DNA of 40,060 nt from a virus (IMGVR_UViG_2563366805_000009), one strand, 5' to 3'; shown: positions 2,423 to 29,294, counted from the stretch's first letter. Notes: generated by a model from the sequence alone, not told the origin. Numbers and translations are program-made.

Positions 2423-2941
2423 TTGAAAACCATGTTTGATTACCAAGTTTCCAAACATCCACATTTTGATGAAGCCTGTCGTGCATTCGCACTGCGCCAC
2501 AATCTGGTGCAACTGGCAGAACGTGCGGGCATGAATGTGCAGATTCTGCGGAACAAGCTGAACCCAGCTCAGCCTCATTTATTAACCGCACCAGAAATCT
2601 GGCTGCTTACCGATCTGACTGAAGATTCAACGCTGGTAGATGGTTTTCTGGCACAGATTCATTGTCTGCCATGTGTACCGATTAATGAGGTGGCAAAAGA
2701 GAAACTGCCACATTACGTCATGAGTGCAACCGCAGAGATCGGGCGTGTTGCTGCAGGTGCGGTATCTGGCGATGTAAAAACCAGTGCAGGTCGTCGTGAT
2801 GCTATCAGCAGCATTAACTCTGTAACACGACTGATGGCGTTGGCTGCTGTTTCATTGCAGGCCCGTTTACAGGCTAACCCTGCGATGGCGAGTGCAGTTG
2901 ATACCGTGACTGGCCTCGGTGCTTCATTCGGTTTGCTGTGA
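2423..2941 (+). CDS. CII-like phage regulatory protein
   Basis: 172-aa ORF immediately after the apl-like gene; size and position match 186 CII as recalled. Confidence 0.55.
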
Positions 2942-2948
2942 GGTGCTT

Positions 2949-3245
2949 ATGCTGACGAAAGAACCATCATTTGCATCGCTGCTGGTAAAACAAAGCCCGG
3001 CAATGCACTACGGTCACGGCTGGATCACGGGTGAGGATGGAAAACGCTGGCATCCATGTCATTCACAAGATGAATTGCTGTCTGAATTGACCACGAGGAA
3101 ACGGAGAAAGTCCAAATGTATGCGGCAGAAAGTGAAGTGGTTTATCAGTTTCGTTACAGAGGGGAGAGTTATTCAGTACCTGAAGATGATTTGCTCTGTT
3201 GCTATCCGTCATTGTCGGGCGATGGCAGTTACTTTTTCGCGTTAA
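2949..3245 (+). CDS. Hypothetical early protein (fil position of 186-like phages); 3' end uncertain
   Basis: ORF track frame 2919..3245 with Met at 2949 (MLTKEPSF...); its last ~40 codons overlap the next ORF in another frame and look low-complexity, so the true end may be earlier. Confidence 0.35.
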   Translation: MLTKEPSFASLLVKQSPAMHYGHGWITGEDGKRWHPCHSQDELLSELTTRKRRKSKCMRQKVKWFISFVTEGRVIQYLKMICSVAIRHCRAMAVTFSR

Positions 3246-3340
3246 AGGATGGGACGTTTTTACGGGGAGAGCAGGTTAAAGAGACGATACGAAAAAATGT
3301 ATCTCCTCTTGAGCGTTACCGTAAGAACAAAGAACGATAG
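3116..3340 (+). CDS. Hypothetical early protein (dhr position of 186-like phages)
   Basis: 74-aa ORF with GGAGAAAG Shine-Dalgarno 7 nt upstream of the ATG. Confidence 0.45.
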   Translation: MYAAESEVVYQFRYRGESYSVPEDDLLCCYPSLSGDGSYFFALKDGTFLRGEQVKETIRKNVSPLERYRKNKER

Positions 3341-3362
3341 CTGCGTTTGGGGGATATGAAGT

Positions 3363-3704
3363 ATGGCAATTAATGGCGCTGCAGCAACTGTTCCATTAAG
3401 CCCCGGTGAACGCCTGAATGGACTTAATCACATTGCGGAGTTAAGGGCGAAAGTTTTTGGCCTGAATATTGAGTCAGAGCTTGAGCGGTTTATTAAAGAT
3501 ATGCGTGATCCACGGGATATCAATAATGAACAAAATAAACGGGCACTGGCTGCCATATTCTTTATGGCAAAAATTCCAGCTGAACGTCATAGCATCAGCA
3601 TTAATGAGCTGACCACTGACGAAAAGCGGGAGCTGATTAAAGCAATGAATCATTTTCGTGCAGTGGTGAGCTTATTTCCCAGACGGCTAACCATGCCGAA
3701 TTAA
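3363..3704 (+). CDS. Hypothetical phage early protein
   Basis: 113-aa ORF in the co-oriented early operon. Confidence 0.5.
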   Translation: MAINGAAATVPLSPGERLNGLNHIAELRAKVFGLNIESELERFIKDMRDPRDINNEQNKRALAAIFFMAKIPAERHSISINELTTDEKRELIKAMNHFRAVVSLFPRRLTMPN

Positions 3705-3765
3705 CCAACTAATGAAATTAATGGCGTAAACCCGCCGGGCATCCCTTTATCTAAATTCAGGAGAA

Positions 3766-4005
3766 TTGATTATGCGTAATATTGAAACCCTCACGACTAA
3801 AACCGGACCGGATGACGCAGGGCTTAATATTTTACTGACAGAGGCTCGTCTGGAAGAACGCCGGGCAAGGGCTGAAGCAATGGCAGCTCGCCTTGATAGC
3901 CTGGCGTGTCATATCTCATCCCGTCAGCTAAACCACGTGGAAGCGGCAGAACTGCTGCGTGTGACTGCTGAAGCAATCCAGAACGAAGCGCAGGAGATCC
4001 ACTAA
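3766..4005 (+). CDS. Hypothetical small phage protein (coiled-coil-like)
   Basis: 79-aa ORF, stop overlaps next start (TAATG). Confidence 0.5.
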   Translation: MIMRNIETLTTKTGPDDAGLNILLTEARLEERRARAEAMAARLDSLACHISSRQLNHVEAAELLRVTAEAIQNEAQEIH

Positions 4006-4232
4006 TGGCTGATGCAATGGATCTCGTACAGCAGCGCGTTGAAGAAGAACGCCAGCGCCATATCCGTGCTGCCCGTGCCAAAACGCCGGGCGTGTCCCGC
4101 GTGCTTTGCGTTGAGTGTGAAGCGCCAATTCCGCCAGCACGCCGCCGTGCCATTCCGGGTGTGCAGCTTTGCATTACCTGTCAGGAAATCGCAGAGCTGA
4201 AAGGCAAACATTACAACGGGGGGGCTGTATGA
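4005..4232 (+). CDS. TraR/DksA-family C4 zinc-finger protein
   Basis: CVECEAPI...CITCQE (C-x2-C-x17-C-x2-C) in a 75-aa ORF; P2-like phages carry such a protein upstream of A. Confidence 0.65.
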   Translation: MADAMDLVQQRVEEERQRHIRAARAKTPGVSRVLCVECEAPIPPARRRAIPGVQLCITCQEIAELKGKHYNGGAV

Positions 4233-5086
4233 GCACCATCCTGAAATGGGCGGGAAATAAAACCGCCGTAATGTCCGAACTGAAAAAACATCTTCCTGCT
4301 GGTCCGCGACTAGTTGAACCTTTCGCGGGTTCCTGTGCTGTGATGATGGAGACGGATTATCCCTGCTATCTGGTTGCGGATATTAATCCTGATTTAATCA
4401 ACCTCTATAAAAAGGTTGCCGCTGATTGTGAATCGTTTATATCTCGCGCCAAAGTTTTATTTGAGATCGCAAACAGGGAGGTGGCTTATTACAACATAAG
4501 GCAGGAGTTTAATTACTCAACTGAAATTACTGATTTCATGAAAGCGGTATATTTCCTGTATCTCAATCGTCACGGTTACCGTGGGTTATGTCGCTATAAC
4601 AAGAGCGGGCATTTCAACATTCCCTACGGTAATTATAAAAATCCGTATTTCCCTGAAAAAGAAATTCGCGCTTTTGCAGAAAAAGCCCAGCGAGCAACGT
4701 TTATCTGCGCCAGCTTTGATGAAACGCTGGCGATGTTGAAGGCGGGGGATGTGGTGTATTGCGATCCGCCTTATGACGGTACGTTTTCCGGCTATCACGC
4801 TGACGGCTTTACTGAAGATGACCAGTATCACCTGGCATCCGTTCTTGAACATCGGTCATCAGAAGGACATCCGGTCATTGTTTCTAACAGTGACACATCC
4901 CTGATCCGTTCGCTGTATCGCAATTTTACTCACCACTATATCAAGGTAAAACGCAGCATCGGCGTAGCAGCTGGTGAGAGTAAATCAGCAACAGAAATCA
5001 TTGCTGTTTCCGGGCCGCGCTGCTGGGTGGGATTTGATTATTCGCGTGGCGTGGATAGTTCTGCCGTGTACGGAGTACGTGCATGA
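4229..5086 (+). CDS. dam: Dam-family DNA adenine-N6 methyltransferase (orphan, phage-encoded)
   Basis: N-terminal KWAGNK...EPFAGS AdoMet-binding region and catalytic DPPY motif ([10 protein letters not shown]); start chosen at internal ATG 4229, overlapping the previous stop. Confidence 0.85.
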
Positions 5087-7497
5087 GCCATGCCGATATG
5101 AGCAACTGCTGCGGCTTTAACGAGGCTGCCGCATCGTTCTCATGGAACAGCCCGAAAAAGGCCATTAACCCTTATCTGGACCCGGCGGAAGTTGCGCCGG
5201 TTTCTGCGCTTTCAAACCTGATCACTCTGTACGCTGCCGATAACGAGCAGGAACAACTGCGCCGCGAGGCACTGAGTGATCAGGTCTGGGAGCGTTATTT
5301 CTTTAATGAATCCCGTGATCCTGTCCAACGCGAAATAGAGCAGGATAAGCTCATTAGCCGGGCAAAGTTGGCGCATGAGCAGCAGCGTTTTAACCCGGAC
5401 ATGGTCATTCTGGCAGACGTCAGCGCCCAGCCCTCCCATATCAGCAAGCCGCTGATGCAACGTATTGAATACTTCAGCAGCTTGGGCAGGCCAAAGGCTT
5501 ATTCCCGCTATTTACGTGAGACGATTAAGCCATGTCTGGAACGACTGGAGCATGTACGCGACAGCCAGCTATCTGCATCTTTTCGTTTTATGGCAAGCCA
5601 TGTAGGGCTGGACGGCCTGCTGATTCTGCCTGAAATGAGTCAGGATCAGGTGAAACGCCTGTCTACCCTTGTCGCTGCGCATATGAGCATGTGCCTTGAT
5701 GCAGCTTGTGGTGATTTGTATGCCACCGATGACGTTAAGCCAGAAGAAATCCGCAAGACATGGGAAAAGGTGGCAGCGGAAACCCTGCGTCTGGATGTCA
5801 TCCCGCCTGCGTTTGAGCAACTCCGTCGGAAAAGAAACCGCCGTAAACCCGTGCCCTATGAACTCATTCCGGGTTCGCTGGCGCGTATGTTGTGCGCCGA
5901 CTGGTGGTACCGGAAATTATGGAAAATGCGTTGCGAATGGCGGGAAGAGCAGTTGCGTGCTGTCTGCCTGGTCAGCAAAAAAGCATCTCCCTATGTCAGC
6001 TATGAAGCCGTGATGCATAAACGTGAGCAGCGCCGCAAGTCACTGGAGTTTTTCCGTTCTCATGAACTGGTGAACGAAGAGGGCGACACGCTGGATATGG
6101 AAGACGTGGTAAACGCCAGCAGCAGCAACCCGGCGCACCGCCGCAATGAGATGATGGCCTGTGTTAAAGGTCTGGAGCTTATCGCGGAAATGCGCGGTGA
6201 CTGCGCCGTTTTCTACACCATTACCTGTCCGTCACGTTTCCATTCCACGCTCAATAACGGCAGACCAAACCCAACCTGGACAAATGCGACGGTAAGACAA
6301 AGCAGCGATTATCTGGTCGGCATGTTTGCTGCATTTCGTAAGGCGATGCACAAAGCCGGGTTGCGCTGGTATGGCGTGCGGGTGGCTGAGCCGCATCATG
6401 ACGGTACAGTTCACTGGCACCTGTTGTGTTTCATGCGCAAAAAAGACCGCCGCGCCATTACTGCATTGTTGCGTAAGTTTGCCATCCGTGAAGACCGCGA
6501 GGAACTGGGTAATAACACTGGTCCACGCTTTAAATCTGAGCTGATAAACCCGCGCAAAGGAACGCCGACAAGCTACATCGCGAAATACATCAGTAAGAAC
6601 ATTGACGGGCGTGGTCTGGCTGGCGAGATCAGCAAGGAAACGGGTAAATCCCTGCGTGATAACGCTGAATACGTTAATGCCTGGGCGTCTCTGCATCGTG
6701 TTCAGCAATTCCGCTTCTTTGGTATTCCGGGACGTCAGGCTTACCGTGAACTTCGCTTGCTGGCTGGTCAGGCGGCAAGGCAACAGGGTGACAAAAAAGC
6801 AGGTGCGCCGGTACTGGATAACCCGCGTCTTGATGCCATTCTGGCTGCTGCTGATGCTGGTTGTTTTGCCACCTACATCATGAAGCAGGGCGGCGTACTG
6901 GTTCCCCGCAAATATCACCTCATCAGAACCGCTTATGAAATCAACGAAGAGCCAACCGCCTATGGCGATCACGGTATTCGTATTTATGGCATCTGGTCAC
7001 CCATTGCAGAGGGCAAGATCTGCACTCATGCAGTGAAGTGGAAAATGGTTCGTAAGGCCGTTGACGTTCAGGAGGCGGCAGCCGACCAGGGCGCTTGCGC
7101 CCCTTGGACTCGTGGCAATAACTGTCCCCTTGCTGAAAATTTGAACCAACATGAGAAAGATGAATCAGCAGATGGGGATACCAGAACGGACATTACCTGC
7201 ATGGATGACAAGGAATTGCACGATTACCTGCACAGTATGAGCAAAAAAGAGCGCCGGGAACTGGCAGCAAGATTGCGCCTGGTTAAACCGAAACGGCGTA
7301 AAGACTACAAACAGCGAATTACAGAGTATCAGCGTCAGCAGCTCGTCTATGAACTGAAGTCCAGAGGATTTGATGGCAGCGAGAAAGAGGTCGATTTGCT
7401 CCTTTGCGGTGGCAGTATTCCGTCAGGAGCAGGCCTGCGTATCTTCTATCGGAACCAGCGTTTGCAGGAAGATGATAAGTGGCGGAACATGTATTAA
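5083..7497 (+). CDS. A: Replication initiation endonuclease (P2 gpA family, rolling-circle)
   Basis: 804-aa ORF; HWHLL (HxH) motif and conserved Tyr-containing regions typical of gpA-type Rep; position after dam/TraR genes. Confidence 0.85.
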
Positions 7498-7749: not shown

Positions 7750-8902
7750 AATAGCTGCGCGGAATAGTAGATCACTGAAAGGGAACTCAGCCCGGATTGT
7801 GCGATCTGATCAATCGCCAAACCAACCAAAATCACCAACCGGACTGAGCGATGCCGATCATAGTACCAATACCCCGTGGCGAACGACGCCTGATGCAGAA
7901 AGCTATTCATAAAACGCGTGATAAAAATCATGCCCGCAGACTCACGGCCATGCTGATGCTTCATCGGGGTGAACGGGTCAGCGATGTTGCCAGAACTCTC
8001 TGTTGTGCCCGTTCATCCGTTGGTCGCTGGATTAACTGGTTTACGCACTCAGGTATTGAAGGCCTGAAATCCTTACCCGCAGGGCGCTCCCGACGCTGGC
8101 CTTTTGAACATATCTGCACCCTGTTACGTGAGCTGATAAAGCATTCTCCCGGCGATTTTGGTTATCAACGTTCACGCTGGAGCACCGAATTACTGGCAAT
8201 AAAAATCAATGAGATAACCGGTTGCCAGTTACATGCAGGAACCGTTCGCCGCTGGTTGCCATCTGCGGGGCTTGTATGGCGCAGGGCCGCGCCAACTCTG
8301 CGTATCCGTGACCCACATAAAGATGAAAAGATGGCGGTAATCCACAAAGCGCTGGATGAATGCAGCGCAGAGCATCCGGTATTTTATGAAGATGAAGTGG
8401 ATATCCACCTTAATCCTAAAATCGGTGCGGACTGGCAGTTGCGCGGACAGCAGAAACGGGTAGTGACGCCGGGGCAGAACGAAAAATACTATCTGGCCGG
8501 CGCACTGCACAGTGGCACGGGTAAAGTCAGCTACGTGGGCGGCAACAGCAAAAGTTCAGCGCTGTTTATCGCTCTGCTGAAGCACCTGAAAGCCACTTAC
8601 CGGCGGGCGAAAACAATCACGCTGATCGTTGATAACTACATTATCCATAAAAGCCGCGAAACACAGCGCTGGTTGAAAGCAAATCCCAAGTTCAGGGTAA
8701 TTTACCAGCCGGTTTACTCGCCGTGGGTGAATCATGTGGAACGGCTATGGCAGGCACTTCATGACACGATAACCCGTAATCATCAGTGCCGCTCAATGTG
8801 GCAGTTACTGAAAAAGGTCCGCCATTTTATGGAAACCGCCAGCCCATTCCCCGGAGGAAAACATGGTCAGGCAAAAGTGTAGCGGTATTAGGCGCAGCTA
8901 TT
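7750..8902 (+). mobile_element. IS630-family insertion sequence (1153 bp) with TA target duplication in a CTAG target
   Basis: Terminal inverted repeats AATAGCTGCGC at 7750..7760 and 8892..8902 (reverse complement); TA at 7748..7749 and 8903..8904; flanks reconstitute C-TA-G; single 343-aa transposase ORF; length equals IS630 as recalled. Confidence 0.85.
7851..8882 (+). CDS. IS630-family (Tc1/mariner-like DDE) transposase
   Basis: 343-aa ORF with HTH N-terminus and DDE-type C-terminus (…VDNYIIHKS…), inside the TIR-bounded element. Confidence 0.9.
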   Translation: MPIIVPIPRGERRLMQKAIHKTRDKNHARRLTAMLMLHRGERVSDVARTLCCARSSVGRWINWFTHSGIEGLKSLPAGRSRRWPFEHICTLLRELIKHSPGDFGYQRSRWSTELLAIKINEITGCQLHAGTVRRWLPSAGLVWRRAAPTLRIRDPHKDEKMAVIHKALDECSAEHPVFYEDEVDIHLNPKIGADWQLRGQQKRVVTPGQNEKYYLAGALHSGTGKVSYVGGNSKSSALFIALLKHLKATYRRAKTITLIVDNYIIHKSRETQRWLKANPKFRVIYQPVYSPWVNHVERLWQALHDTITRNHQCRSMWQLLKKVRHFMETASPFPGGKHGQAKV

Positions 8903-9061: not shown

Positions 9062-9361
9062 TTAGTTGTTCCCCAAAGAGCCGGCCATGGCTGCATATTT
9101 AATTTCTTCGCTGGGTATTTCAGGATGTAGTTGAATTTGCCTGATGATATAGCCAGGAACTTCGTCACTCCACAGTTTCGCCGCGTCCTTACAGACCTTA
9201 TACGCGAAGTCTCTATTCTCAAAGGCATAGGATTTTCCGTATGCATATTGCTGACAGGCATGAACATAAGCTCCGAAGTCGCCGTCTTTATCTGGCAAAG
9301 CACATCCAGCTAAGGCTATGATGATTGCTACTAACGTAAAGGAGAAAGTTATACGTTTCAT
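9062..9361 (-). CDS. Small lipoprotein (99 aa), function unknown
   Basis: Signal peptide with lipobox (LAGC) at N-terminus; ORF track. Confidence 0.6.
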   Translation of the reverse strand: MKRITFSFTLVAIIIALAGCALPDKDGDFGAYVHACQQYAYGKSYAFENRDFAYKVCKDAAKLWSDEVPGYIIRQIQLHPEIPSEEIKYAAMAGSLGNN

Positions 9362-9469: not shown

Positions 9470-10276
9470 TTATTTAGAAAGGTACTTATCTCTAAGTTGA
9501 TTCAGTCTGTCAGCATCGCGTTCTGAAAACTCGGCGTCACCATAGATCGATTTCCCATCTGCGTCTTCAAGGCCAATGACTGTGACGGTAAATATAGCAT
9601 CAGCCGGAACTTTAAGTTTTCCCCAATCAGAGTATCTATTAGGGGCTAATTTCCAGTTGGCTTTCTCACCTGGTTCCAGACCTCCAGAAATTTTATAGTT
9701 GAAGACGTCAGAGAACCAAGGGACGCTTCTTCCTGGGCTGGCAATAACTCCTTTGAAGAATACTCTGGCAACCGCTTTGTCTGTTCCGTTTTCAACGCTA
9801 ATATCCAGAATTGGCTGATCATTGCCGTAATCCTCTTTCTGGAAATAAAAACGGGAACGTTCGACCTTGAAGGCTTTCATTTTTTCCGCAGCCTGTGTTG
9901 CAGAGGTTTGTTTGGCTTCCAGTTCTTTTATTTCTTGCAGAGCCTGTTCTTTCTCTCTCTTCTCACGCTCAAGGCGAATAGTTTGTGCGTAATTTATAAC
10001 CTCATCACCAGTTTTACCTTCCAACGCTGACTTAATTTTTGTTTCGTAGACGTCCCCAGAAGACGTTCCAGCCTGCATTAGCTCTCTCATGTTGATTTGG
10101 CTAAAGGCAACGACTTTAACTGCATCATCAAACTGAGCTTTTTTATCTGCAGGTAAGGACTCTCTTACTTTTTGAATGGACTCTTTCATCGACTGATCGC
10201 TTGATGCATCGATCTTCGGTTTGTCACAAGCAGTAAGCAGCAGAGCAAAAGCAATTACGCCAGTTAATTTCTTCAT
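9470..10276 (-). CDS. Lipoprotein (268 aa), function unknown
   Basis: Start moved to internal ATG (MKKLTGVIAFALLLTAC…, lipobox LTAC); charged coiled-coil-like middle region; ORF track 9470..10348. Confidence 0.6.
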   Translation of the reverse strand: MKKLTGVIAFALLLTACDKPKIDASSDQSMKESIQKVRESLPADKKAQFDDAVKVVAFSQINMRELMQAGTSSGDVYETKIKSALEGKTGDEVINYAQTIRLEREKREKEQALQEIKELEAKQTSATQAAEKMKAFKVERSRFYFQKEDYGNDQPILDISVENGTDKAVARVFFKGVIASPGRSVPWFSDVFNYKISGGLEPGEKANWKLAPNRYSDWGKLKVPADAIFTVTVIGLEDADGKSIYGDAEFSERDADRLNQLRDKYLSK

Positions 10277-10437
10277 ATCCCTATCCCAATCGTAAAAAAA
10301 CAAGGCTAATCCTAACAGGATTAGCGGGCATGACAAACTCATAGCCATATAGGTGTGCTGTATAAATTAGCGGGATGAGAAAGCCTGCACAGACCCTCAT
10401 GTTGAAACTTGATTTTAGCTCAAAAGAGCTGACACTA

Positions 10438-10805: not shown

Positions 10806-10824
10806 GGCGTGGCGGGGATACGAG
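10806..10824. other. Probable cos site (19-nt cohesive-end region) of the P2/186-family phage
   Basis: GGCGTGGCGGGGATACGAG resembles the recalled P2/186 cohesive end GGCG(A/T)GGCGGGGAAAGCA(C/T) over the first 13 nt; lies between the A-side accessory region and the portal gene, as in P2. Confidence 0.4.
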
Positions 10825-10983
10825 CGCGCGCTCGCTTAGTTTTGTAACACTCTGAGTAAGGTCGCTTTTTAGAAGCAAATGGCTTGCAAATTTTTTCAAC
10901 ATTGAGGTAATTTGTTAGGTATCGAAGGATAAATTAAGACAAGAGCAAATTCTTATTGCTTTTTGGATGACTAGGTGCAAGTT

Positions 10984-12090
10984 ATGACAGGTAGTGTCCC
11001 AGTAGTGCTTTCTGAGTCTGAGTTAAAGTCGATCTTGACCTTAACTGAACGTTTCACATGGAACGTTGCAAGGCCAATTATTGCGTCTTTAGGGCTGCCA
11101 ACAGGTAGGGGGCGTGAAGCAACAAACGAAAAAATACTAGAAAGCCTCATTGATCTTAAAAGTAAAGATAGGCAAAAGTTTGATGGCATTATGGCAAACG
11201 TAAATGACCTAATTTTGGGTCAGGTCGTTTATGGTGAAAAAGCAATATTTAGTTTGACTGTAGATAATAGTGTAATTAAAACACTAAATGACAGATTTAG
11301 TTTCCAATGGAATTTGATGAATCAACCATCATTATTGGTTGATTCGATCCTTGATGATGTCCAATTGCAAAATGCTGTAAAAAATCAACCTGAACTTGTT
11401 AATTATTCTATTCAAAACACCCAGTCAATACTTGTTTTTTCATCTGTCAGAGAATTAGTTGTAAGAGAAAAAATTCCCCCGTCAGCACTTGCGCAATACA
11501 AGCAGTTTGATGAAATTATTGCAAAGCGAAAAGAAAAGCGACAATGTTTTGATGTCTGTATATTAGACTCTGTTACTAATAAAATTCATGTTTTGGTAGA
11601 TACTAATGGTAATATTATTGGTGATAATGTTACTTTTGCAAAGAGTAACATTATTCGTGAATTGTATAATCATGTCGGTTATGAATTTAAATCATCGGAA
11701 AAAGATTTTTATCCGTTAATTGAGCCAATTTTCAAACAAAATTCATTGCCTTATTCAAAATTAAGCTATAAAGTCTTTGATTTGTCATTTTTGACGAATG
11801 AGGGGACTACGCATAAAGAAAAGAAAAATGTGGCCACTAAAGACTTACGTGATGATTTGTTTAATAAGGAAGGCATCAAAGCAGTAGGCAGTATTGGTTT
11901 GTATCGTATTGGAATTAGAGTTGATAGAAATAATCCAAAACTGCAATTAGCGGATAACGTAGAGCTTATCATTCCGGGAACACTCCGCAGGCATCTAGGA
12001 GGGAGTAGTTGCTCTCCTGTTAACTATGCTATATTAAGTAAATGTATATCCAAAGATGATTTCGAAACCCTCACAAAGCTGATATTATAA
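10984..12090 (+). CDS. Hypothetical protein, gene 1 of AT-rich three-gene operon (368 aa)
   Basis: ORF track 10975..12090 (GTG); ATG 10984 preferred, AGGTG RBS 6 nt upstream; no P-loop, no nucleotidyltransferase GS…DxD or RT YADD motif seen by eye; strongly AT-rich. Confidence 0.6.
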   Translation: MTGSVPVVLSESELKSILTLTERFTWNVARPIIASLGLPTGRGREATNEKILESLIDLKSKDRQKFDGIMANVNDLILGQVVYGEKAIFSLTVDNSVIKTLNDRFSFQWNLMNQPSLLVDSILDDVQLQNAVKNQPELVNYSIQNTQSILVFSSVRELVVREKIPPSALAQYKQFDEIIAKRKEKRQCFDVCILDSVTNKIHVLVDTNGNIIGDNVTFAKSNIIRELYNHVGYEFKSSEKDFYPLIEPIFKQNSLPYSKLSYKVFDLSFLTNEGTTHKEKKNVATKDLRDDLFNKEGIKAVGSIGLYRIGIRVDRNNPKLQLADNVELIIPGTLRRHLGGSSCSPVNYAILSKCISKDDFETLTKLIL

Positions 12091-12102
12091 TTGGAGTCAG
12101 CA

Positions 12103-12537
12103 ATGAAGGATGGTGATATGCCCAAGATCATCAAAGAAATGTGTGCAGAACGCCCTGAAATTGGGGCGTTAGCTTGCTATTTGTACGATGAAATCGAGGC
12201 AAGGGCTAAAAAATCATCAAATATAGCTTTAAGTTATAAGGATTTATTTAATATAGCTGGTGGTTATAATAAGGTTTTACAGCCAGAAACGTATGAGCAG
12301 GTTATCTATCCGGCCATACAAATTCTTTGTAGCCCAAAGGTTGATTTTTTAAAACTCAATTATTGGTTCATTGATGATTTTCATGACCCTGTAGAACTTG
12401 AAATAGAGGAAGTTATTGAGGCGGAAATCAGTCAATCTTTAGCAAACCCATTTACAGGGGAGCTTATGTATGACTATAAGTCATTCGTATTTCCTTTTTT
12501 TACATTAGATGAATCTAAATCAAAGGATATTATCTGA
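12103..12537 (+). CDS. Hypothetical acidic protein, gene 2 of operon (144 aa)
   Basis: ORF track 12091..12537 (TTG); ATG 12103 with GGAG 6 nt upstream; begins 12 nt after gene 1 stop. Confidence 0.55.
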   Translation: MKDGDMPKIIKEMCAERPEIGALACYLYDEIEARAKKSSNIALSYKDLFNIAGGYNKVLQPETYEQVIYPAIQILCSPKVDFLKLNYWFIDDFHDPVELEIEEVIEAEISQSLANPFTGELMYDYKSFVFPFFTLDESKSKDII

Positions 12538-13202
12538 TGTTAAAAATGTCTGCAGCAATGAGTTTGGCTGATATTGATAATGATATTTTTCTTCAGCGTA
12601 TTAATGCTTCTATTACTCGTGTTAGATTTGCACTTCAATCGTACGATAATTTCAAACAATTTGTCAGGATTGAACTTGATTCTGCTGTAAAGGAAATAGA
12701 AGAGAATTCAAATAAGTTAAACTTCGATTTAACAGAAGATCAGCTTACTTTAATTTTATTGGCCAATATCAAAAATAAAGATATGGGCATTGAAGCATTT
12801 CATGAAAATAATCAGCGCGGACATTGTGATATTACAATAAAACTAAAGGATTATATTTGGCATGGCGAAGCCAAAAAACATACATCTTCATATAGTTATT
12901 TATTTAAAGGGTATGCTCAACTCACTGAACGATATAGTACAGGGACCGTAGACAGCGCAAGTGGTGGATTGATTATCTATACTCGTAATAGAAAATGTAA
13001 TGAAATGATGAGCAACTGGAAGGCGCATTTAGATAAATTCGCACCAAGAATTCATGCCTGTAAATCTATAACGATTACTCCTTGTCAAAAAAATCCATTG
13101 GTTTTTTATAGCCAGCATGTTCACACAGTTACTCAACTGAATTATGAAGTTATTCATTACCCTGTAAATCTATATCATGAGCCTGTAGATCCGGATCTTT
13201 AA
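12537..13202 (+). CDS. Hypothetical protein with PD-(D/E)xK-like nuclease motif, gene 3 of operon (221 aa)
   Basis: Start overlaps gene 2 stop (TGATG); motif …AFHENNQRGHCDITIKLKDYIWHGEAKKH (E…D-x13-E-x-K). Confidence 0.55.
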   Translation: MLKMSAAMSLADIDNDIFLQRINASITRVRFALQSYDNFKQFVRIELDSAVKEIEENSNKLNFDLTEDQLTLILLANIKNKDMGIEAFHENNQRGHCDITIKLKDYIWHGEAKKHTSSYSYLFKGYAQLTERYSTGTVDSASGGLIIYTRNRKCNEMMSNWKAHLDKFAPRIHACKSITITPCQKNPLVFYSQHVHTVTQLNYEVIHYPVNLYHEPVDPDL

Positions 13203-13242
13203 GTTTTAATGCTCATGTCTTGGTGATTTTAAACTAAAGAAT

Positions 13243-13270
13243 AAAAGCCTGTTTGTACAGGCTTTTAAAT
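13243..13270. terminator. Bidirectional Rho-independent terminator between operon and portal gene
   Basis: Perfect 10-bp inverted repeat AAAAGCCTGT/ACAGGCTTTT with 4-nt loop, T-run after the stem on both strands. Confidence 0.5.
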
Positions 13271-13271
13271 A

Positions 13272-14309
13272 TCATTCAATACCTAAATTATAATCTTCAA
13301 AACGCATGACTTCTTCTCCAAGCCAGTCGTTCAATTCCTGAAGGCGCTTCTGCAGAGGTATCAACTCGTTGCGAACAAAGACGCGGCTGGCTTTCTCCAC
13401 ATCCCCAAAACCCCCAACATTACTCGGCATAATCCCCATCATTTGCGGCGGCACACGATGTGCTGCCATCATGTCATCCCGACTCACGTTCTTGATATTC
13501 AAAAACTCATCCTTCGCTGCGACCTCTGACAACGGGATAATCTGAAGTCCGTCCTTTTTGCCGTTAGGCGAGTACATAAACAGATTGCGGAAGTTGCCAG
13601 GGCCTTTGGCGCTTTTCATTGCGTTGCGGAGGTTGTTCACATCTTCCTGGTTCTGCGCGGCATCGGTCATATACATGATGAAGCCTGCATGGCTACCGTT
13701 AATGTAATACTTGCGGCGGAACAGCGTGGCGGACTCGTTGAGCAGGGCTGACGGAATGGCAGAAAGATAACCGGGCAGGCCGTAGATCTCCTGGTTGATG
13801 TCCGGTTCCATCAGATGAAAAATGCTGCCTTTCGTGAACTGATACGGCAGGGTTGTCATACCGTATTGCACAAACCAGTAGGTATCCAGGTCTAATCCGC
13901 GTCGGGTGTATTTTGCAAGCGCAGGCTCAATAGCGATAACTTCACCGAATCGGTTCGTGCGTTTCTCCAGGTAGGCGTTACCAAATACCAGATAGTCCTG
14001 CACAAAACGCGAAAAAGCCTGCTGGCTGAGCAGCGGATGAGGGATATAGGTACTGGTCAGAATGTTGCACTTTACTGCAATCGGGGAACTGTGATGCACG
14101 GCGGCGCGGAAGGTGCGCGCCAGTCCGTCAAAGCTGACGGGCGGCTCATACCAACGGTCCATCTGTACGCATTCCACATAATCCAGCAGTTCTCGGCGGT
14201 CCAGAACAGGAACGGGATCGCCGAAGCTGAATGCTTCGGCTGTAGTTTGACTTTTAAGCTGGATCTGTTTCGTCGCCGCAGCGCGGTTCTTCTTACTCTT
14301 TCCCATCAA
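13272..14309 (-). CDS. Q: Portal protein (P2 gpQ family)
   Basis: 345-aa ORF, size and position match P2 Q; overlaps the terminase gene start/stop. Confidence 0.9.
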   Translation of the reverse strand: MMGKSKKNRAAATKQIQLKSQTTAEAFSFGDPVPVLDRRELLDYVECVQMDRWYEPPVSFDGLARTFRAAVHHSSPIAVKCNILTSTYIPHPLLSQQAFSRFVQDYLVFGNAYLEKRTNRFGEVIAIEPALAKYTRRGLDLDTYWFVQYGMTTLPYQFTKGSIFHLMEPDINQEIYGLPGYLSAIPSALLNESATLFRRKYYINGSHAGFIMYMTDAAQNQEDVNNLRNAMKSAKGPGNFRNLFMYSPNGKKDGLQIIPLSEVAAKDEFLNIKNVSRDDMMAAHRVPPQMMGIMPSNVGGFGDVEKASRVFVRNELIPLQKRLQELNDWLGEEVMRFEDYNLGIE

Positions 14310-16072
14310 AAAATCTCCACAATATTGCTGGTATTGGCGGATTCGCCCTGCAGCGGTTCGTTAAACAGTGCGTGCATCGTTGCCCAGGCCAGATCGGCGT
14401 GGCTGGCTTCTTCGCTGCGGCTGGCTTCATAGGTCGGGCGGTTGCCACTGGCGGTGGTGGCGCGACGGATTGCCATAAAGGACTGCGCTATGTCGGTGTG
14501 TCCGGCGTCAAACTCCAGACGGCGGTGGCTGATAATGTCGTAGGCCTTGAGTACCAGGGCGTTTTTAACGTTGGGGTTGTAGACAAACTCCCGGACGGCA
14601 GGAAAAAACGCTTTCACGTTCTCGTAAACCCCGTGACCAACGCCGGTTGAGTCGATACCGATATAGGTCACGTTGTACTGTTCGGTCAGTTTTTTGATGG
14701 CGTCAGCCTGGGCGCGGAAGTCCATTCCGCGCCACTGGTGACGCTCAAGAATGCGGAACTTACCGCCCGGCACGGCTGGCGGCGCCACCACCACGCATCC
14801 GGCGCTGTCGCCGTTCTGCGTACCTTTCGCCGGGTCATATCCGATCCACACTTCGCGCCAGCCAAACGGGCGCAGGGCCAGTGCATGAAAGTCGGTCCAG
14901 ACTTCCCAACTGTCCACCATGCACGCCTGCAGCTCGCTGAGTGGGAACACAGACGCGAGATCGTCCACGAACTCACACATCAGCAGGTTCTGGTATTCGT
15001 CCGGGCTGTACTCCATGCGCAACTGGTCGAGGTCGAACAGGTTACAGCCGCCGCGCACCGCATCTTCCACAGTGACTATCTGGCGGTACTGCCCGTCTGC
15101 GCACAGCAGGCCGGGGGCCAGATTGCTGTGGGACAGGTCGATGTCCACCTTATCGGCTTTGCTGCGCCCTCGGTTGAACAGCGCACCGGACCAGAACGGA
15201 TAAGCACTGTGTGTCAGGCTGGATGGCGTGGAAAAATAGGTTTGTCGCCATTTTTTGTGAATAGCCATACCGGAAGCCACTTTGCCCAGCTCCTGGAATT
15301 TCGGTATCCAGAAATATTCATCCAGATACAGGTTGCCGTGGTAACTCTGGGCCGTGCGGGCATTGGTGCCGAGGAAGTACAGCGTGGCCCCGTTAGGAAG
15401 CACCATCGGATCGCCTTTCAGCTCCACCTCCACTTCTTTGGCGAAGTCGATGATGTACTGCTTAAAGACGTGGGCCTGAGCCTTGCTGGCGGAAAGGAAA
15501 ATCTGGTTACGCCCGGTTAGCAGGGCGTCAATCAGGGCTTCACGGGCAAAATAGAAGGTCGCGCCGATCTGGCGTGACTTCAGCAGGTTGCGGATGCGGT
15601 TGGTTTTTCCGGCTTCCCACCAGTGGCGCTGGTAGTTGAACATGGAGGAATGGAAGATTTCTTCCAACTTCTCAATCTGTTCATCGGTGAAAACGTTCTT
15701 TTCCGGCTGACGGCGCGGGCCTTTGTTGCGGTTGGCGACGTTAGGGTTTAAGTCGGCTTCGTTGCCGCCATTGTTAAACTTGCCGATCCGCGCATGGCGC
15801 TCCGACTGGCGCGCCAGCAGGTCAATCTCTTTGAAATCTTTCCCTTCTTTGTGCTCCTTCATAATGAGCTGGCAGTAGCGTGCGGCGGTGGTGAGCTGCA
15901 TCTGATCAAGCGGCCCATAGTCACCCCACTTGTCGCGTTTTTTCCAGCTGTGAACGGTTGCAACTTTCTCGCCCAGCATTTCAGCAATGCGGGCTACGCG
16001 GTATCCCTGAAAGTACAGCAGCATGGCCTGCCGACGGGGATCGAGATCTGCGGGTGTCAGTGTGGTGTTCAT
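14306..16072 (-). CDS. P: Terminase large (ATPase) subunit (P2 gpP family)
   Basis: 588-aa ORF adjacent to portal, N-terminus …TPADLDPRRQ… like P2 gpP as recalled. Confidence 0.9.
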   Translation of the reverse strand: MNTTLTPADLDPRRQAMLLYFQGYRVARIAEMLGEKVATVHSWKKRDKWGDYGPLDQMQLTTAARYCQLIMKEHKEGKDFKEIDLLARQSERHARIGKFNNGGNEADLNPNVANRNKGPRRQPEKNVFTDEQIEKLEEIFHSSMFNYQRHWWEAGKTNRIRNLLKSRQIGATFYFAREALIDALLTGRNQIFLSASKAQAHVFKQYIIDFAKEVEVELKGDPMVLPNGATLYFLGTNARTAQSYHGNLYLDEYFWIPKFQELGKVASGMAIHKKWRQTYFSTPSSLTHSAYPFWSGALFNRGRSKADKVDIDLSHSNLAPGLLCADGQYRQIVTVEDAVRGGCNLFDLDQLRMEYSPDEYQNLLMCEFVDDLASVFPLSELQACMVDSWEVWTDFHALALRPFGWREVWIGYDPAKGTQNGDSAGCVVVAPPAVPGGKFRILERHQWRGMDFRAQADAIKKLTEQYNVTYIGIDSTGVGHGVYENVKAFFPAVREFVYNPNVKNALVLKAYDIISHRRLEFDAGHTDIAQSFMAIRRATTASGNRPTYEASRSEEASHADLAWATMHALFNEPLQGESANTSNIVEIF

Positions 16073-24518: not shown

Positions 24519-25897
24519 GCACAAAATTTTATACCCTGCTGACGGATATTGGCGCGGCGAAACTTGTCAGCGCCGCCGCGCTCGGTGTGCCGCTAAAAAT
24601 TACCCATATGGCGGTGGGCGATGGTGGCGGAACATTGCCGACGCCGGACGCAAAGCAGAGTGCACTGGTAAATGAGAAACGTCGGGCTGCGCTGAATATG
24701 CTCTATATCGACCCACAGAACAGCAGCCAGATTATTGCTGAACAGGTGATCCCTGAAAACGAGGGCGGTTGGTGGATACGTGAAGTGGGCCTGTTTGATG
24801 AGTCAGGGGCATTGATTGCCGTGGGCAACTGCCCGGAAAGCTATAAGCCGCAACTGGCTGAAGGCAGCGGGCGTACCCAGACCGTGCGCATGGTGCTGAT
24901 TACCAGCAGCACGGACAATATCACCCTGAAAATCGACCCTGCTGTAGTGCTGGCAACCCGCAAGTATGTGGATGACAAGGCACTGGAGCTGAAGGTGTAC
25001 GCGGATGATCAGATGGCAAAACATCTTGCCGCACCGGACCCGCATTCACAGTATGCAGCCAAAGAAAGTCCTACGTTTACCGGGACACCCAAAGCGCCAA
25101 CGCCAGCGACGGGGAATAACACCACGCAGGTTGCGACCACCGCATTTGTTCAGGCGGCACTGACGGCTCTTATTAATGATGCGCCAGCCACGCTGGACAC
25201 GCTGAAAGAAATAGCCGTAGCCATTAACAATGATCCGAAATTCAGTACCACCATTAACAATGCGCTGGCACTGAAAGCGCCGCTGTCGAGTCCGGCACTC
25301 ACCGGAACGCCAACCGCACCGACTGCGGCACAGTCGGTCAACAATACACAGATTGCCACCACGGCATTTGTGAAATCGGCGATTGCGGCAATGGTGGGTT
25401 CTGCACCTGCGGCACTGGATACACTGAACGAACTGGCGGCGGCGCTGGGGAATGACCCGAACTTTGCCACGACAATGCTTAATGCACTGGCAGGTAAACA
25501 ACCGCTGGACAATACGCTGACTCATTTGAGTGGAAAGGATGTTGCTAGTCTTCTCGCATACCTTGGTTTGGGAGAAGCGGCAAAACGGAATGTGGGAACA
25601 GGGGAAAATCAGATACCTGATATGTCATCATATGCATCAGGTTCAGGCTGGCGAAAAATGCCAGATGGTTCAATTGAACAGTGGGGACGAATTAGTTTTC
25701 CTGGTGAACACGGGCCTGTATCCGCCAATGTTTCATTCCCGATTCCATTTACACAGACACCTGGCATTGTAATTGTGTGCGATGGTGGTTTCGGGGGCGG
25801 GAATATGTGGGGGGCGACCAACTGGAGCACTACCGGCTTCATAGCTCACTGCAATTATGGTCTTGAAGGTGGTGCGTTTTTCGCTAAGGGCTGGTAA
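24515..25897 (+). CDS. H: Tail fibre protein H: constant N-terminal part fused to the currently expressed variable C-terminal segment (25565..25897)
   Basis: 460 aa; conserved N-terminus [17 protein letters not shown]…; repeats …TTAFV…; crossover site lies inside the gene at 25551..25576. Confidence 0.85.
25551..25576. other. Invertase crossover site (left, inside H): TTCTCGCATACC-TT-GGTTTGGGAGAA
   Basis: 26-bp imperfect dyad with central dinucleotide, resembling hix/gix/cix/pix sites (…AAACC-NN-GGTTT…); marks the left end of the mirror symmetry. Confidence 0.55.
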
Positions 25898-26340
25898 TGA
25901 TGAAATATCTGTACGTAAACAACCTGGCATATCCTTACGAACTTCAGTCTCTTTATGTTGAAAAAGGTGAATGGCCTGAAGAAAAAGGTGTTGATATAGA
26001 CGAAGTAATTTTCAGGGAATATTTCTATGACACACCACCAGAAGGAAAATACAGATGTGTTGGAGAAGATGGACTGCCTGCATGGGCAGATATTCCTCCA
26101 CCAACACGTGAAGAACAAATTGCATCAGCCGAAACTAAAAAGCAGCAATTGATTAATCAGGCCAACGATTATATGAACAGTAGACAATGGGTTGGTAAAG
26201 CGGCTATTGGTCGTCTGAAAGGTGAGGAACTGGCGCAATATAATTTGTGGCTGGATTATCTGGACGCACTGGAGCTGGTCGATACTTCCGGTGCACCAGA
26301 TATTGAATGGCCTACGCCTCCGGCAGTTCAGGCCAGATGA
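25897..26340 (+). CDS. Tail fibre assembly protein (Tfa) for the expressed fibre tip
   Basis: 147 aa directly after H stop (ATGATGAAA overlapping); size and C-terminal conservation typical of Tfa. Confidence 0.75.
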   Translation: MMKYLYVNNLAYPYELQSLYVEKGEWPEEKGVDIDEVIFREYFYDTPPEGKYRCVGEDGLPAWADIPPPTREEQIASAETKKQQLINQANDYMNSRQWVGKAAIGRLKGEELAQYNLWLDYLDALELVDTSGAPDIEWPTPPAVQAR

Positions 26341-26914
26341 CATCCGGCGCGGTGCTGGTATCTGTTGCCGTCACCGCGTCAATGTAATCCAGCACGGCGT
26401 TAAGGCGGGTTGTTTCTGCCTGCGTCAGCTTCCGTCCGGCCTGTAATTTCAGTTGAATCAGACTGATGGAGGCCATTGCAGTATCAATCAGCGACTGGCG
26501 CTGTGCTTCTGCTGCATCTACTGCTGCGCCGTGCTGTGCCTCAGTATCGGTCACCCATTTCTCACCATCCCATTTATCGTATGGCGTTAACGGGGCGATA
26601 GTGGTTGTATTTTCAGGGTAATCACCCGGAGTTGTGATTTCTTTGGCTTCTCCCGTTTCGGTGTTATAGACGATTTCACCGCGATGGTCTGGCACATATT
26701 CCCATGAGTTAAAATCTGCAGAACGGCAGATAGCATAACCAGCCTTATATGTGCCTGGTGAATCTAAACAGGAATATGCCGGGATACCAACACCAACGGC
26801 AAGATATTCATTTGAAGTGGAAATATATTCCCGTATTTCACCATCATAGTTATAGACGGTAATATTCCCTGCCTTCGTGGCAATAATCTCGCTATTTAAT
26901 ACAGCGTTATCCAT
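26312..26914 (-). CDS. Tail fibre assembly protein (Tfa) of the alternative fibre
   Basis: 200 aa, convergent with the other tfa; follows the alternative fibre tip on the minus strand. Confidence 0.75.
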   Translation of the reverse strand: MDNAVLNSEIIATKAGNITVYNYDGEIREYISTSNEYLAVGVGIPAYSCLDSPGTYKAGYAICRSADFNSWEYVPDHRGEIVYNTETGEAKEITTPGDYPENTTTIAPLTPYDKWDGEKWVTDTEAQHGAAVDAAEAQRQSLIDTAMASISLIQLKLQAGRKLTQAETTRLNAVLDYIDAVTATDTSTAPDVIWPELPEA

Positions 26915-27393
26915 TATGCAGCCCTCACAATATAATTAAAGGCAATGTTACGTGGGCGGTTCTCATTTGCGGTTGGGACAACGGCTGAAGCATTAAAATT
27001 CGCATACAGGGAGCGTTGATACCCGGATGCTGATGCACCACTTAATGCGGGAGCTTTTGACTCCGAAGCCGAAAAGGCCCCTGACACGTATCCTAATAAC
27101 CCTTGTGAATCGCCAATTGAACTGTAGCCAACCACCCCGGTAATGTTTCGGATAGCATCTCCTTGTGCTGAAAGCAGAGTTCGCCCACTATCCACTCCCT
27201 TTCCACCATCCCAGCCACGAATAAACTCACCGCGTAAATCAGGCAATTTTAACGTCGGGTAAGCCTTTGCCAGATTAGGGTAATCTTCAGCAGAAAAAGC
27301 CGCACCGTTGCATTTCAGCCAGCCTGTTGGCGGTGTGGCTGAAGGCCATGGAACAGGCACACCAACAGGCAGCGCAGAGCCTTCCCCTAAACC
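26914..27393 (-). CDS. Alternative tail-fibre C-terminal segment (promoterless; becomes fused to H after inversion)
   Basis: In frame from the crossover core (…GLGE-GSALPVGVPVPWP…); the ORF-track N-terminal extension (MHFSQPVGG…) is antisense of the copy-2 coding sequence and is not considered real. Confidence 0.6.
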   Translation of the reverse strand, partial: GLGEGSALPVGVPVPWPSATPPTGWLKCNGAAFSAEDYPNLAKAYPTLKLPDLRGEFIRGWDGGKGVDSGRTLLSAQGDAIRNITGVVGYSSIGDSQGLLGYVSGAFSASESKAPALSGASASGYQRSLYANFNASAVVPTANENRPRNIAFNYIVRAA

Positions 27394-27407
27394 AACGTTT
27401 AAGAAAA
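27382..27407. other. Invertase crossover site (centre 1): TTCCCCTAAACC-AA-CGTTTAAGAAAA
   Basis: Outer half identical to the pin-proximal site's outer half; inverted relative to the left site. Confidence 0.5.
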
Positions 27408-27437: not shown

Positions 27438-27463
27438 TTCTCGCATACCTTGGTTTAGGGGAA
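27438..27463. other. Invertase crossover site (centre 2): TTCTCGCATACC-TT-GGTTTAGGGGAA
   Basis: Outer half identical to the H-internal site's outer half; direct repeat of the left site, 1887 bp downstream. Confidence 0.5.
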
Positions 27464-27931
27464 GGCTCTGCGCTGCCTGTTGGTGTGCCTGTTCCATGGC
27501 CTTCAGCCACACCGCCAACAGGCTGGCTGAAATGCAACGGTGCGGCTTTTTCTGCTGAAGATTACCCTAATCTGGCAAAGGCTTACCCGACGTTAAAATT
27601 GCCTGATTTACGCGGTGAGTTTATTCGTGGCTGGGATGGTGGAAAGGGAGTGGATAGTGGGCGAACTCTGCTTTCAGCACAAGGAGATGCTATCCGAAAC
27701 ATTACCGGGGTGGTTGGCTACAGTTCAATTGGCGATTCACAAGGGTTATTAGGATACGTGTCAGGGGCCTTTTCGGCTTCGGAGTCAAAAGCTCCCGCAT
27801 TAAGTGGTGCATCAGCATCCGGGTATCAACGCTCCCTGTATGCGAATTTTAATGCTTCAGCCGTTGTCCCAACCGCAAATGAGAACCGCCCACGTAACAT
27901 TGCCTTTAATTATATTGTGAGGGCTGCATAA
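27452..27931 (+). CDS. Second copy of alternative tail-fibre C-terminal segment, preceded by a 31-bp fragment of the H constant region
   Basis: Identical protein to the 26914..27393 segment; ORF-track start 27308 is an antisense artefact. Confidence 0.55.
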   Translation, partial: GLGEGSALPVGVPVPWPSATPPTGWLKCNGAAFSAEDYPNLAKAYPTLKLPDLRGEFIRGWDGGKGVDSGRTLLSAQGDAIRNITGVVGYSSIGDSQGLLGYVSGAFSASESKAPALSGASASGYQRSLYANFNASAVVPTANENRPRNIAFNYIVRAA

Positions 27932-28533
27932 TGGATAACGCTGTATTAAATAGCGAGATTATTGCCACGAAGGCAGGGAATATTACCGTCTATAACTATG
28001 ATGGTGAAATACGGGAATATATTTCCACTTCAAATGAATATCTTGCCGTTGGTGTTGGTATCCCGGCATATTCCTGTTTAGATTCACCAGGCACATATAA
28101 GGCTGGTTATGCTATCTGCCGTTCTGCAGATTTTAACTCATGGGAATATGTGCCAGACCATCGCGGTGAAATCGTCTATAACACCGAAACGGGAGAAGCC
28201 AAAGAAATCACAACTCCGGGTGATTACCCTGAAAATACAACCACTATCGCCCCGTTAACGCCATACGATAAATGGGATGGTGAGAAATGGGTGACCGATA
28301 CTGAGGCACAGCACGGCGCAGCAGTAGATGCAGCAGAAGCACAGCGCCAGTCGCTGATTGATACTGCAATGGCCTCCATCAGTCTGATTCAACTGAAATT
28401 ACAGGCCGGACGGAAGCTGACGCAGGCAGAAACAACCCGCCTTAACGCCGTGCTGGATTACATTGACGCGGTGACGGCAACAGATACCAGCACCGCGCCG
28501 GATGTCATCTGGCCTGAACTGCCGGAGGCGTAG
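27931..28533 (+). CDS. Tail fibre assembly protein, duplicate copy
   Basis: Identical 200-aa product to 26312..26914. Confidence 0.7.
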   Translation: MDNAVLNSEIIATKAGNITVYNYDGEIREYISTSNEYLAVGVGIPAYSCLDSPGTYKAGYAICRSADFNSWEYVPDHRGEIVYNTETGEAKEITTPGDYPENTTTIAPLTPYDKWDGEKWVTDTEAQHGAAVDAAEAQRQSLIDTAMASISLIQLKLQAGRKLTQAETTRLNAVLDYIDAVTATDTSTAPDVIWPELPEA

Positions 28534-28948
28534 GCCATTCAATATCTGGTGCACCGGAAGTATCGACCAGCTCCAGTGCGTCCAGATAATCCAGCCACAA
28601 ATTATATTGCGCCAGTTCCTCACCTTTCAGACGACCAATAGCCGCTTTACCAACCCATTGTCTACTGTTCATATAATCGTTGGCCTGATTAATCAATTGC
28701 TGCTTTTTAGTTTCGGCTGATGCAATTTGTTCTTCACGTGTTGGTGGAGGAATATCTGCCCATGCAGGCAGTCCATCTTCTCCAACACATCTGTATTTTC
28801 CTTCTGGTGGTGTGTCATAGAAATATTCCCTGAAAATTACTTCGTCTATATCAACACCTTTTTCTTCAGGCCATTCACCTTTTTCAACATAAAGAGACTG
28901 AAGTTCGTAAGGATATGCCAGGTTGTTTACGTACAGATATTTCATCAT
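28505..28948 (-). CDS. Tail fibre assembly protein, duplicate copy
   Basis: Identical 147-aa product to 25897..26340. Confidence 0.7.
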   Translation of the reverse strand: MMKYLYVNNLAYPYELQSLYVEKGEWPEEKGVDIDEVIFREYFYDTPPEGKYRCVGEDGLPAWADIPPPTREEQIASAETKKQQLINQANDYMNSRQWVGKAAIGRLKGEELAQYNLWLDYLDALELVDTSGAPDIEWPTPPAVQAR

Positions 28949-29280
28949 TACCAGCCCTTAGCGAAAAACGCACCACCTTCAAGACCATAATTGCAGTGAG
29001 CTATGAAGCCGGTAGTGCTCCAGTTGGTCGCCCCCCACATATTCCCGCCCCCGAAACCACCATCGCACACAATTACAATGCCAGGTGTCTGTGTAAATGG
29101 AATCGGGAATGAAACATTGGCGGATACAGGCCCGTGTTCACCAGGAAAACTAATTCGTCCCCACTGTTCAATTGAACCATCTGGCATTTTTCGCCAGCCT
29201 GAACCTGATGCATATGATGACATATCAGGTATCTGATTTTCCCCTGTTCCCACATTCCGTTTTGCCGCTTCTCCCAAACC
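28948..29280 (-). CDS. Second copy of the H variable C-terminal segment (promoterless, inverted)
   Basis: Identical to H residues [11 protein letters not shown]…AKGW; in frame to the crossover core at 29281..29282. Confidence 0.55.
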
Positions 29281-29294
29281 AACGTTTAAGAAAA
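29269..29294. other. Invertase crossover site (right, pin-proximal): TTCTCCCAAACC-AA-CGTTTAAGAAAA
   Basis: Inverted relative to the left site; lies about 55 bp upstream of the invertase gene, as gix/cix/pix sites do. Confidence 0.55.

Follow-up and report, generated by a model that had tools for sequence, protein, structure and literature searches.

The 40,060-nucleotide stretch IMGVR_UViG_2563366805_000009 (the window, meaning the whole stretch that was analyzed) is a complete P2/186-like Escherichia coli prophage with a little host DNA at its right end. The variable region between its replication gene A and its portal gene Q holds a cassette of three genes on the + strand, spanning positions 10975-13202, whose third member is a predicted nuclease. 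Gene 1 (10984..12090) encodes a slightly basic protein of 368 residues (isoelectric point [pI], 8.5) from an ATG at 10984, the mechanical open reading frame (ORF) beginning at a GTG at 10975. Gene 2 (12103..12537) encodes a small acidic protein of 144 residues (pI 4.4) from an ATG at 12103, with a GGAG six bases 5' of it, the mechanical ORF here starting from a TTG at 12091. Gene 3 (12537..13202) is an ATG-initiated ORF of 221 residues, and the ORF listing, in which it is the third of three co-oriented genes, agrees with the original prediction, which placed it third in an operon. The TGA stop of gene 2 and the ATG of gene 3 have one base in common (TGATG, 12535-12539). A GC-containing hairpin with an 11-bp stem (13242..13267) separates the end of gene 3 from that of portal gene Q, which converges on it. 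The terminator scan assigns the hairpin to the - strand, on the + strand the palindrome is followed by TTTTAAAT, and it is likely to be the terminator that closes the cassette.

Compared with an 83 to 86% identical allele from strain NMBU-W12E19, the ratios of nonsynonymous to synonymous substitution rates (dN/dS) of genes 1 to 3 are 0.13, 0.14, and 0.06, respectively, indicating purifying selection, so that all three genes are kept by selection. The protein encoded by gene 3 is 100% identical to WP_016239485.1. All three proteins are annotated as hypothetical in RefSeq. Neither Pfam nor NCBIfam gives a usable match for any of them, Pfam scans of diverse members of each of the three families yield no consistent family, and PADLOC-DB v2.0.0 returns 0 families for all three at an E value of ≤1. 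The PHROGs scan of the three proteins finds families of unknown function only, with gene 3 belonging to phrog_9664.

The original prediction proposed that gene 3 carries a PD-(D/E)xK-like catalytic motif, based on the segment IEAFHENNQRGHCDITIKLKDYIWHGEAKKH, which corresponds to residues 85 to 115 (nucleotides 12789-12881) as read directly from the sequence. The pattern by itself is weak evidence, because an Asp followed by a hydrophobic residue and, after 8 to 28 positions, by [DE]xK is present in 54% of 5,000 shuffles of the gene 3 protein. What raises the motif above chance is its conservation together with the predicted structure. A word-indexed homologue search for gene 3 yields 37 clusters, mostly from Enterobacterales and none with a name. 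In 36 close homologues with 37 to 86% identity, residues D98 (GAT, 12828-12830), E111 (GAA, 12867-12869), and K113 (AAA, 12873-12875) are invariant, as are E67 (GAA, 12735-12737), D68, H89, E90, G95, H96, C97, W108, A112, H115, Q128, R132, and Y133.

A profile search over 1.84 billion cluster representatives, clustered at 50% identity, expands the family to 568 proteins with an E value of ≤0.001, 125 of them at ≤1e-30. From the matches listed, 148 distant representatives with at most 50% mutual identity were aligned to the gene 3 profile. All 148 carry D98, E111, and K113, and G95, G125, and Y133 are likewise 100% conserved; E67, Q128, R132, and H207 are each conserved in 99% and W108 in 98%. 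The resulting signature reads E67 ... G-H-x-D98 ... W-x-x-E111-A-K113 ... Q128-L-x-x-R-Y. The motif claim thus stands on the conservation of D98, E111, and K113 and on the predicted fold, with two corrections. The distance from D98 to E111 is 13 residues, with K113 at +15, where the ExK had been placed 14 residues past the Asp. The additional acidic residue had been sought within the quoted segment, where E86 is kept in only 7% of the distant representatives and position 90 is Asp or Glu in 88%, so that E90 is not the conserved acid; the near-invariant E67 lies outside the segment. The candidate catalytic residues, as suggested by alignment and model, are therefore E67, D98, E111, and K113, plus Q128, all of which are 99 to 100% conserved among the distant representatives.

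The AlphaFold2 model of gene 3, built on the 36-sequence alignment, has a mean predicted local distance difference test score (pLDDT) of 89.9 and a predicted template modeling score (pTM) of 0.85. Two long helices at the N terminus (10-32 and 36-56) form a hairpin ahead of a core at residues 67 to 149 (12735..12983, + strand), delimited by the secondary structure of the model and by conservation. The core is composed of helix 67-76, strands 85-88, 99-103, and 106-115, helix 120-133, and strand 142-149, which is the alpha-beta-beta-beta-alpha-beta topology of the restriction-endonuclease-like fold and the arrangement that the motif had led one to expect. E67, with D68 beside it, is found at the start of helix 67-76, providing a conserved acid on the helix preceding the sheet. 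D98 is located just before strand 99-103, E111-A-K113 lies inside strand 106-115, and Q128, R132, and Y133 are all on helix 120-133. Neither of the two outcomes that would have refuted the original prediction, a model without this fold or motif residues that vary among homologues, was observed. Taken together, model and alignment make it very probable that gene 3 encodes a catalytically competent PD-(D/E)xK nuclease.

The closest structural neighbors of the gene 3 model are the type II restriction enzymes OkrAI, BamHI, BstYI, and BglII, in this order, and McrC, type ISP, and type IIG enzymes are matched as well. The sequence identity to the BamHI-like enzymes is 6 to 9%. Gene 3 differs from them in its added N-terminal helical hairpin, in having two unrelated partner genes instead of a partner methyltransferase, and in the third catalytic position, which is Lys (ExK) as in classical PD-(D/E)xK enzymes, whereas BamHI has Glu and BglII has Gln. 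No restriction enzyme model of Pfam or NCBIfam matches gene 3, and the PDB sequence and profile searches give no match. The Pfam search of 48 relatives yields isolated sub-threshold hits, to PDDEXK_9 in two (best E value, 0.014) and to Mrr_cat in one (E value, 0.045). Gene 3 is a new sequence family within the well-known PD-(D/E)xK superfamily.

Some PD-(D/E)xK proteins cut RNA or are inactive, opening the question of whether gene 3 has retained the fold while acting as an RNase or as a noncatalytic DNA-binding scaffold. We consider this highly improbable: the full catalytic set is 99 to 100% conserved in a family with 568 hits, which argues strongly that catalysis is retained. Several distant homologues (P0076, P0109, and P0202 in our numbering of family members) have Lys/Ala/Pro-rich, histone H1-like basic C-terminal tails; judged by their composition, these tails are consistent with nonspecific DNA or nucleic acid binding by some members, which also speaks against such a role.

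The nuclease domain is reused in other protein contexts. Among the 150 relatives listed are seven long proteins of 712 to 1,198 residues in which it forms the C terminus of a STAND nucleoside triphosphatase (NTPase). In six of these (P0100, P0132, P0149, P0160, P0165, and P0166), a NACHT domain at the N terminus is followed by HEAT repeats in the middle and by the nuclease domain at the C terminus, and the seventh (P0213) combines NB-ARC/NACHT and TPR regions with it. The gene for P0100 stands alone in its genome (contig L014, 5001-8597). A further homologue, P0037, with 38% identity to gene 3, lies directly behind a 458-residue TIR_2 protein on the phage-like contig L002 (Ga0604934_0015514, 2765-4764), which has a terminase gene nearby; this is a two-gene variant in which the TIR_2 protein takes the place of the gene 1 and gene 2 homologues. 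The possibility that this TIR protein is a fused or diverged gene 1 was rejected, the hhalign probability being 0.25%, and longer members of the gene 3 family as fusions with gene 2 or gene 1 were likewise discarded, as there are no profile hits. P0206 (contig L013, 984-2054) carries an extra C-terminal LexA/UmuD-type S24 peptidase domain and sits behind a 136-residue gene 2-like ORF and a truncated upstream gene; the fusion suggests that some variants may be controlled through self-cleavage or DNA damage.

One catalytic module placed behind several kinds of sensor is the pattern of effector domains in bacterial immunity. The view that gene 3 is the likely effector of the cassette, also part of the original prediction, is supported by this modular use, short of proof, and we regard a function as defense effector as probable. 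An effector at the C terminus, where the NACHT fusions have the nuclease domain, is uncommon among bacterial NLR-like proteins. The effector of Avs and bNACHT proteins is usually N-terminal. The description of these systems by Rousset et al. (2022, PMC9122126) agrees with an N-terminal effector.

The gene 1 model may have an RdgC-like fold. The likeness is structural only, with global template modeling (TM) scores of 0.31 to 0.40, and since these are so low, the domain arrangement differs from that of RdgC; an N-terminal four-helix region further sets gene 1 apart, and sequence similarity to RdgC was not found. The gene 1 proteins are homologous across the cassette variants, those of distant cassettes matching the protein of the window with E values of 8e-13 and 4e-16 at 21 to 23% identity. 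Gene 2 is alignable with the middle gene of eight other cassettes, the pairwise similarity being weak (E value, 8e-4). We propose that gene 1 is a putative DNA-binding or sensor component and gene 2 a putative regulator, inhibitor, or adaptor of the nuclease.

The E. coli RdgC ring binds duplex DNA. An RdgC-like ring with this property, taken together with four type II restriction enzymes as the best structural matches and with McrC, type ISP, and type IIG enzymes among the others, would suit a restriction system without its own methyltransferase, which cuts directly, either modification dependent as in type IV systems or with its sites protected by a Dam-type methylase of the prophage, genes 1 and 2 serving as recognition or loading subunits. 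The prophage indeed encodes a D12-class (Dam-like) adenine methylase among its early genes (4169-5086). However, this gene is about 6 kb from the cassette and is probably a core gene of the phage type without a link to it, and neither the window nor any other locus examined, a 6.1-kb plasmid among them, has an annotated methyltransferase within or next to the cassette. The prophage Dam as cognate methylase is unlikely, given the other cassette copies without an annotated methylase. The lack of a sequence match to the restriction enzyme families of Pfam also counts against a restriction system, and the NACHT-HEAT fusions suggest cutting that depends on activation and is not constitutive. On balance, restriction of this kind seems quite unlikely.

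The cassette recurs as an ordered set of genes for proteins of about 350 to 380, 135 to 145, and 205 to 250 residues, with boundaries that usually overlap. The cassette region of the window is 100% identical in the chromosomes of ECONIH4, C 236-04A, 2021CK-01361, and CAVP776, and that of MS 115-1 is nearly identical. The cassette is present in 21 of the 5,426 complete E. coli genomes (≥80% coverage), which is a sporadic distribution. Seven Stx1a-converting phages carry a diverged whole three-gene copy, as in Stx1_499 (LC567825.1; locus L006, 2475-4582). In these phages, the cassette is located between the Q antiterminator and stx1AB, so it may be expressed with the late genes and the toxin on induction, if the direction in which it faces with respect to the late promoter allows this. 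The same gene order is found on an Enterobacter IncF plasmid, on a genome contig where it adjoins a gene for a WYL-type regulator, on a metagenome contig where it adjoins AAA_15 and UvrD-helicase genes, the domain pair of Gabija, and at three more metagenome loci, of which one belongs to a Mu-like prophage. On a 6.1-kb Klebsiella pneumoniae Col plasmid (L007) with 8 annotated features, only genes 2 and 3 are annotated.

This distribution bears on the idea that the cassette is an accessory module for phage recombination, replication, or action against the host, in which an RdgC-like modulator of RecA and a structure-specific nuclease would serve the DNA metabolism of the prophage itself. The cassette has a GC content of 34%, compared with 56% in the adjacent structural genes, and it is exchanged among unrelated elements, namely, P2-like, lambdoid Stx, and Mu-like phages and Col and IncF plasmids. 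With its sporadic occurrence, foreign base composition, and exchange among elements, it does not resemble a function in replication or recombination that belongs to a single type of phage, and the immune-type fusions of the nuclease domain count against such a module, too, making it very unlikely.

The interval in which the cassette lies, between gene A (5083-7497) and gene Q (13272-14309, - strand), is itself informative, as the gpA-gpQ interval of P2-like phages was defined as a hotspot of anti-phage systems (Rousset et al., 2022, PMC9122126). The cassette is catalogued in that study as system 91, with three protein sequences and no Pfam entry (PMC9122126); the system 91 sheet is in the supplementary file mmc6, which we take as Table S5B, and we read the number 36 given there as 36 loci. 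A second, computational source is DefensePredictor, whose Table S10 lists WP_021580613.1 as a "Predicted novel defense gene" with a mean log-odds score of 8.40, the strict threshold being 4 (PMC13092281). This protein is an 84% identical allele of gene 1. Its score, the hotspot location, and the Gabija-type genes next to one cassette copy give indirect support for a role in defense.

Among the known systems, Rst_3HP (pFR109) is the closest in layout, also being composed of three genes without recognizable domains in the same P2 gpA-gpQ hotspot, and protection against P1 has been demonstrated for it (Rousset et al., 2022, PMC9122126). The proteins of the two systems differ in size and have no sequence relationship; the best BLASTP E value is 0.39 and the profiles of the three families find nothing, which rules out that the cassette is Rst_3HP. 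PD-(D/E)xK nucleases are the commonest domain among newly validated E. coli defense systems (PMC13092281). PD-(D/E)xK effector domains are found in Avs, bNACHT, HamA (Hachiman), SduA (Shedu), NucC, and Can2, whereas the nuclease of the cassette is a separate protein. The PADLOC, Pfam, and NCBIfam scans indicate no NTPase, helicase, or nucleotide-sensing domain in genes 1 to 3. The cassette therefore differs from STAND/NLR defense systems (Avs and bNACHT), which have a P-loop NTPase; NACHT is found only in the relatives of the nuclease domain. Of 48 distant relatives of gene 3, 17 give weak matches to the C-terminal part of the PADLOC candidate PDC-S54 (best E value, 4.3e-6), which add to the support for an effector role. 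PDC-S54 is a single-gene candidate model of 410 positions, of which the relatives match about 245 to 410, so that about 240 N-terminal positions are missing from gene 3. The full-text literature search found no paper on PDC-S54, and nothing for the RefSeq accessions of the cassette or for RdgC together with defense. The RdgC-like partner is unlike the components of the defense systems compared here, and the cassette is an uncharacterized variant of the arrangement of a sensor or regulator with a nuclease effector.

With a probability of roughly 0.6, we favor the interpretation that gene 3 encodes a metal-dependent DNA nuclease of the BamHI fold and serves as the effector, under the control of genes 1 and 2, of a cassette against phages that forms part of the cargo of the P2/186-like hotspot. 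Its most likely benefit is to guard the lysogen from infection by other phages. Several points weigh against this interpretation. Gene 1 has no RdgC match in Pfam and no PDB sequence match, profiles included, in addition to its low global TM scores. Gene 2 has no recognizable domain and no PDB or Pfam match, and the role proposed for it as an inhibitor or adaptor is suggested only by its acidity and its overlap with the start of gene 3. That E67, D98, E111, and K113 would form one site is read from their secondary structure positions and from the fold matches of the model. Gene 3 of the window and its close relatives do not match PDC-S54, the matches of the other relatives being weak. The cassette is catalogued and its defense role computer predicted: the table of cloned systems of Rousset et al. 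has no match to its sequence (Table S2, PMC9122126), and neither the cassette accessions nor the invariant peptides were found in those DefensePredictor tables of tested units that were searched in full, although this is not proof of absence.

A final point against is that the small-plasmid copies adjoin toxin-antitoxin genes, which fits a tripartite toxin-antitoxin or addiction module equally well. Here, the nuclease would be the toxin, gene 2 the antitoxin, and gene 1 a regulator or chaperone, and the module would stabilize its carrier element, with defense being incidental. However, gene 1 is the largest of the three genes and, with its dN/dS of 0.13, well conserved, and a simple toxin-antitoxin pair would leave it without a role. 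The NACHT-HEAT fusions and the TIR partner are typical of immune sensors and not of toxins controlled by an antitoxin, and both the hotspot location and the DefensePredictor score favor defense. An addiction module is thus an unlikely explanation, and the boundary between the two readings is not sharp, since many defense systems are toxin-antitoxin-like.

For the favored anti-phage function, the following mechanism can be proposed, although the specific division of labor among the three proteins is doubtful. The RdgC-like protein of gene 1 would bind DNA or a DNA structure that forms as infection proceeds. Gene 2 might be made in a fixed proportion to the nuclease through the overlapping stop and start codons and might hold or bridge the nuclease in an inactive state. 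A cue from the infection would then release the nuclease or assemble it into an active multimer, and activation by release or multimerization is probable. Enzymes of the BamHI type cleave as dimers, and in STAND fusions it is oligomerization that activates the effector. The active nuclease would cut DNA and halt the replication of the phage, possibly at the cost of the cell, the outcome being either abortive infection or the destruction of phage DNA alone. A bolder version, which we hold only tentatively, sees the cassette as a widespread three-component immune system, in which an RdgC-like sensor encircling the DNA acts through the acidic adaptor to license the BamHI-like nuclease, the same module also being plugged into NACHT-HEAT and TIR sensors. 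The cue could then be free ends or replication or recombination intermediates, a suggestion that is equally speculative.

The hotspot also contains an IS630-family transposase gene (DDE_3 and HTH domains; 7851-8882) inserted ahead of the cassette. The same layout, transposase then cassette, is given for NZ_KE137155 in Table S5A of Rousset et al. (2022, PMC9122126), and MS 115-1 is without the IS630 insertion. Two lipoprotein-like genes (9062-9361 and 9470-10348, - strand), one of them a DUF6694 family lipoprotein, share the hotspot as a possible second cargo module, perhaps for surface exclusion. The sequence GGCGTGGCGGGGA (10806..10818, + strand) occurs once in the window, where 0.01 occurrences would be expected by chance, and we take it to be a candidate for the P2/186 cos core, which it resembles. 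If this is cos, the cassette would lie between cos and Q, at the extreme left of the packaged DNA. The old and tin genes of P2 are on the opposite side of cos.

The rest of the window follows the prophage order. The integrase gene (1-1209, - strand) is at the left end, a CI-type repressor and early genes lie between it and the adenine methylase, and the terminase gene (14306-16072, - strand) comes after gene Q. The capsid, lysis, and tail genes are located beyond the terminase, and the host ybjL-like and ybjM genes begin at 37.4 kb. A 1,857-nucleotide inverted repeat, with arms at 25551-27407 and 27438-29294 that are 99% complementary and separated by a spacer of 30 nucleotides, spans ORFs for the tail fiber C terminus and tail fiber assembly just upstream of a serine invertase gene (Resolvase and HTH_7 domains; 29344-29916). 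It could be a mirrored invertible tail fiber segment with nearly identical alternatives or an assembly artifact of a population with mixed orientations.

A nuclease effector in a prophage hotspot is unsurprising in itself, and the greater value lies in three proteins that are outside Pfam, NCBIfam, and PADLOC, although their genes stay together in several kinds of phage and on an IncF plasmid, and in the reuse of the nuclease domain by NACHT-HEAT and TIR proteins. A motif recognized by eye has been turned into precise, testable residues, namely, E67, D98, E111, and K113. If the defense function were validated, one more "unknown" locus of the P2 hotspot would be explained, and a new effector family and possibly another way to sense infection would be gained. 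If the tentative reading of gene 1 as a sensor were true as well, the cassette would provide both a new sensing principle, with an RdgC-type DNA clamp as an immune sensor, and a new effector family.

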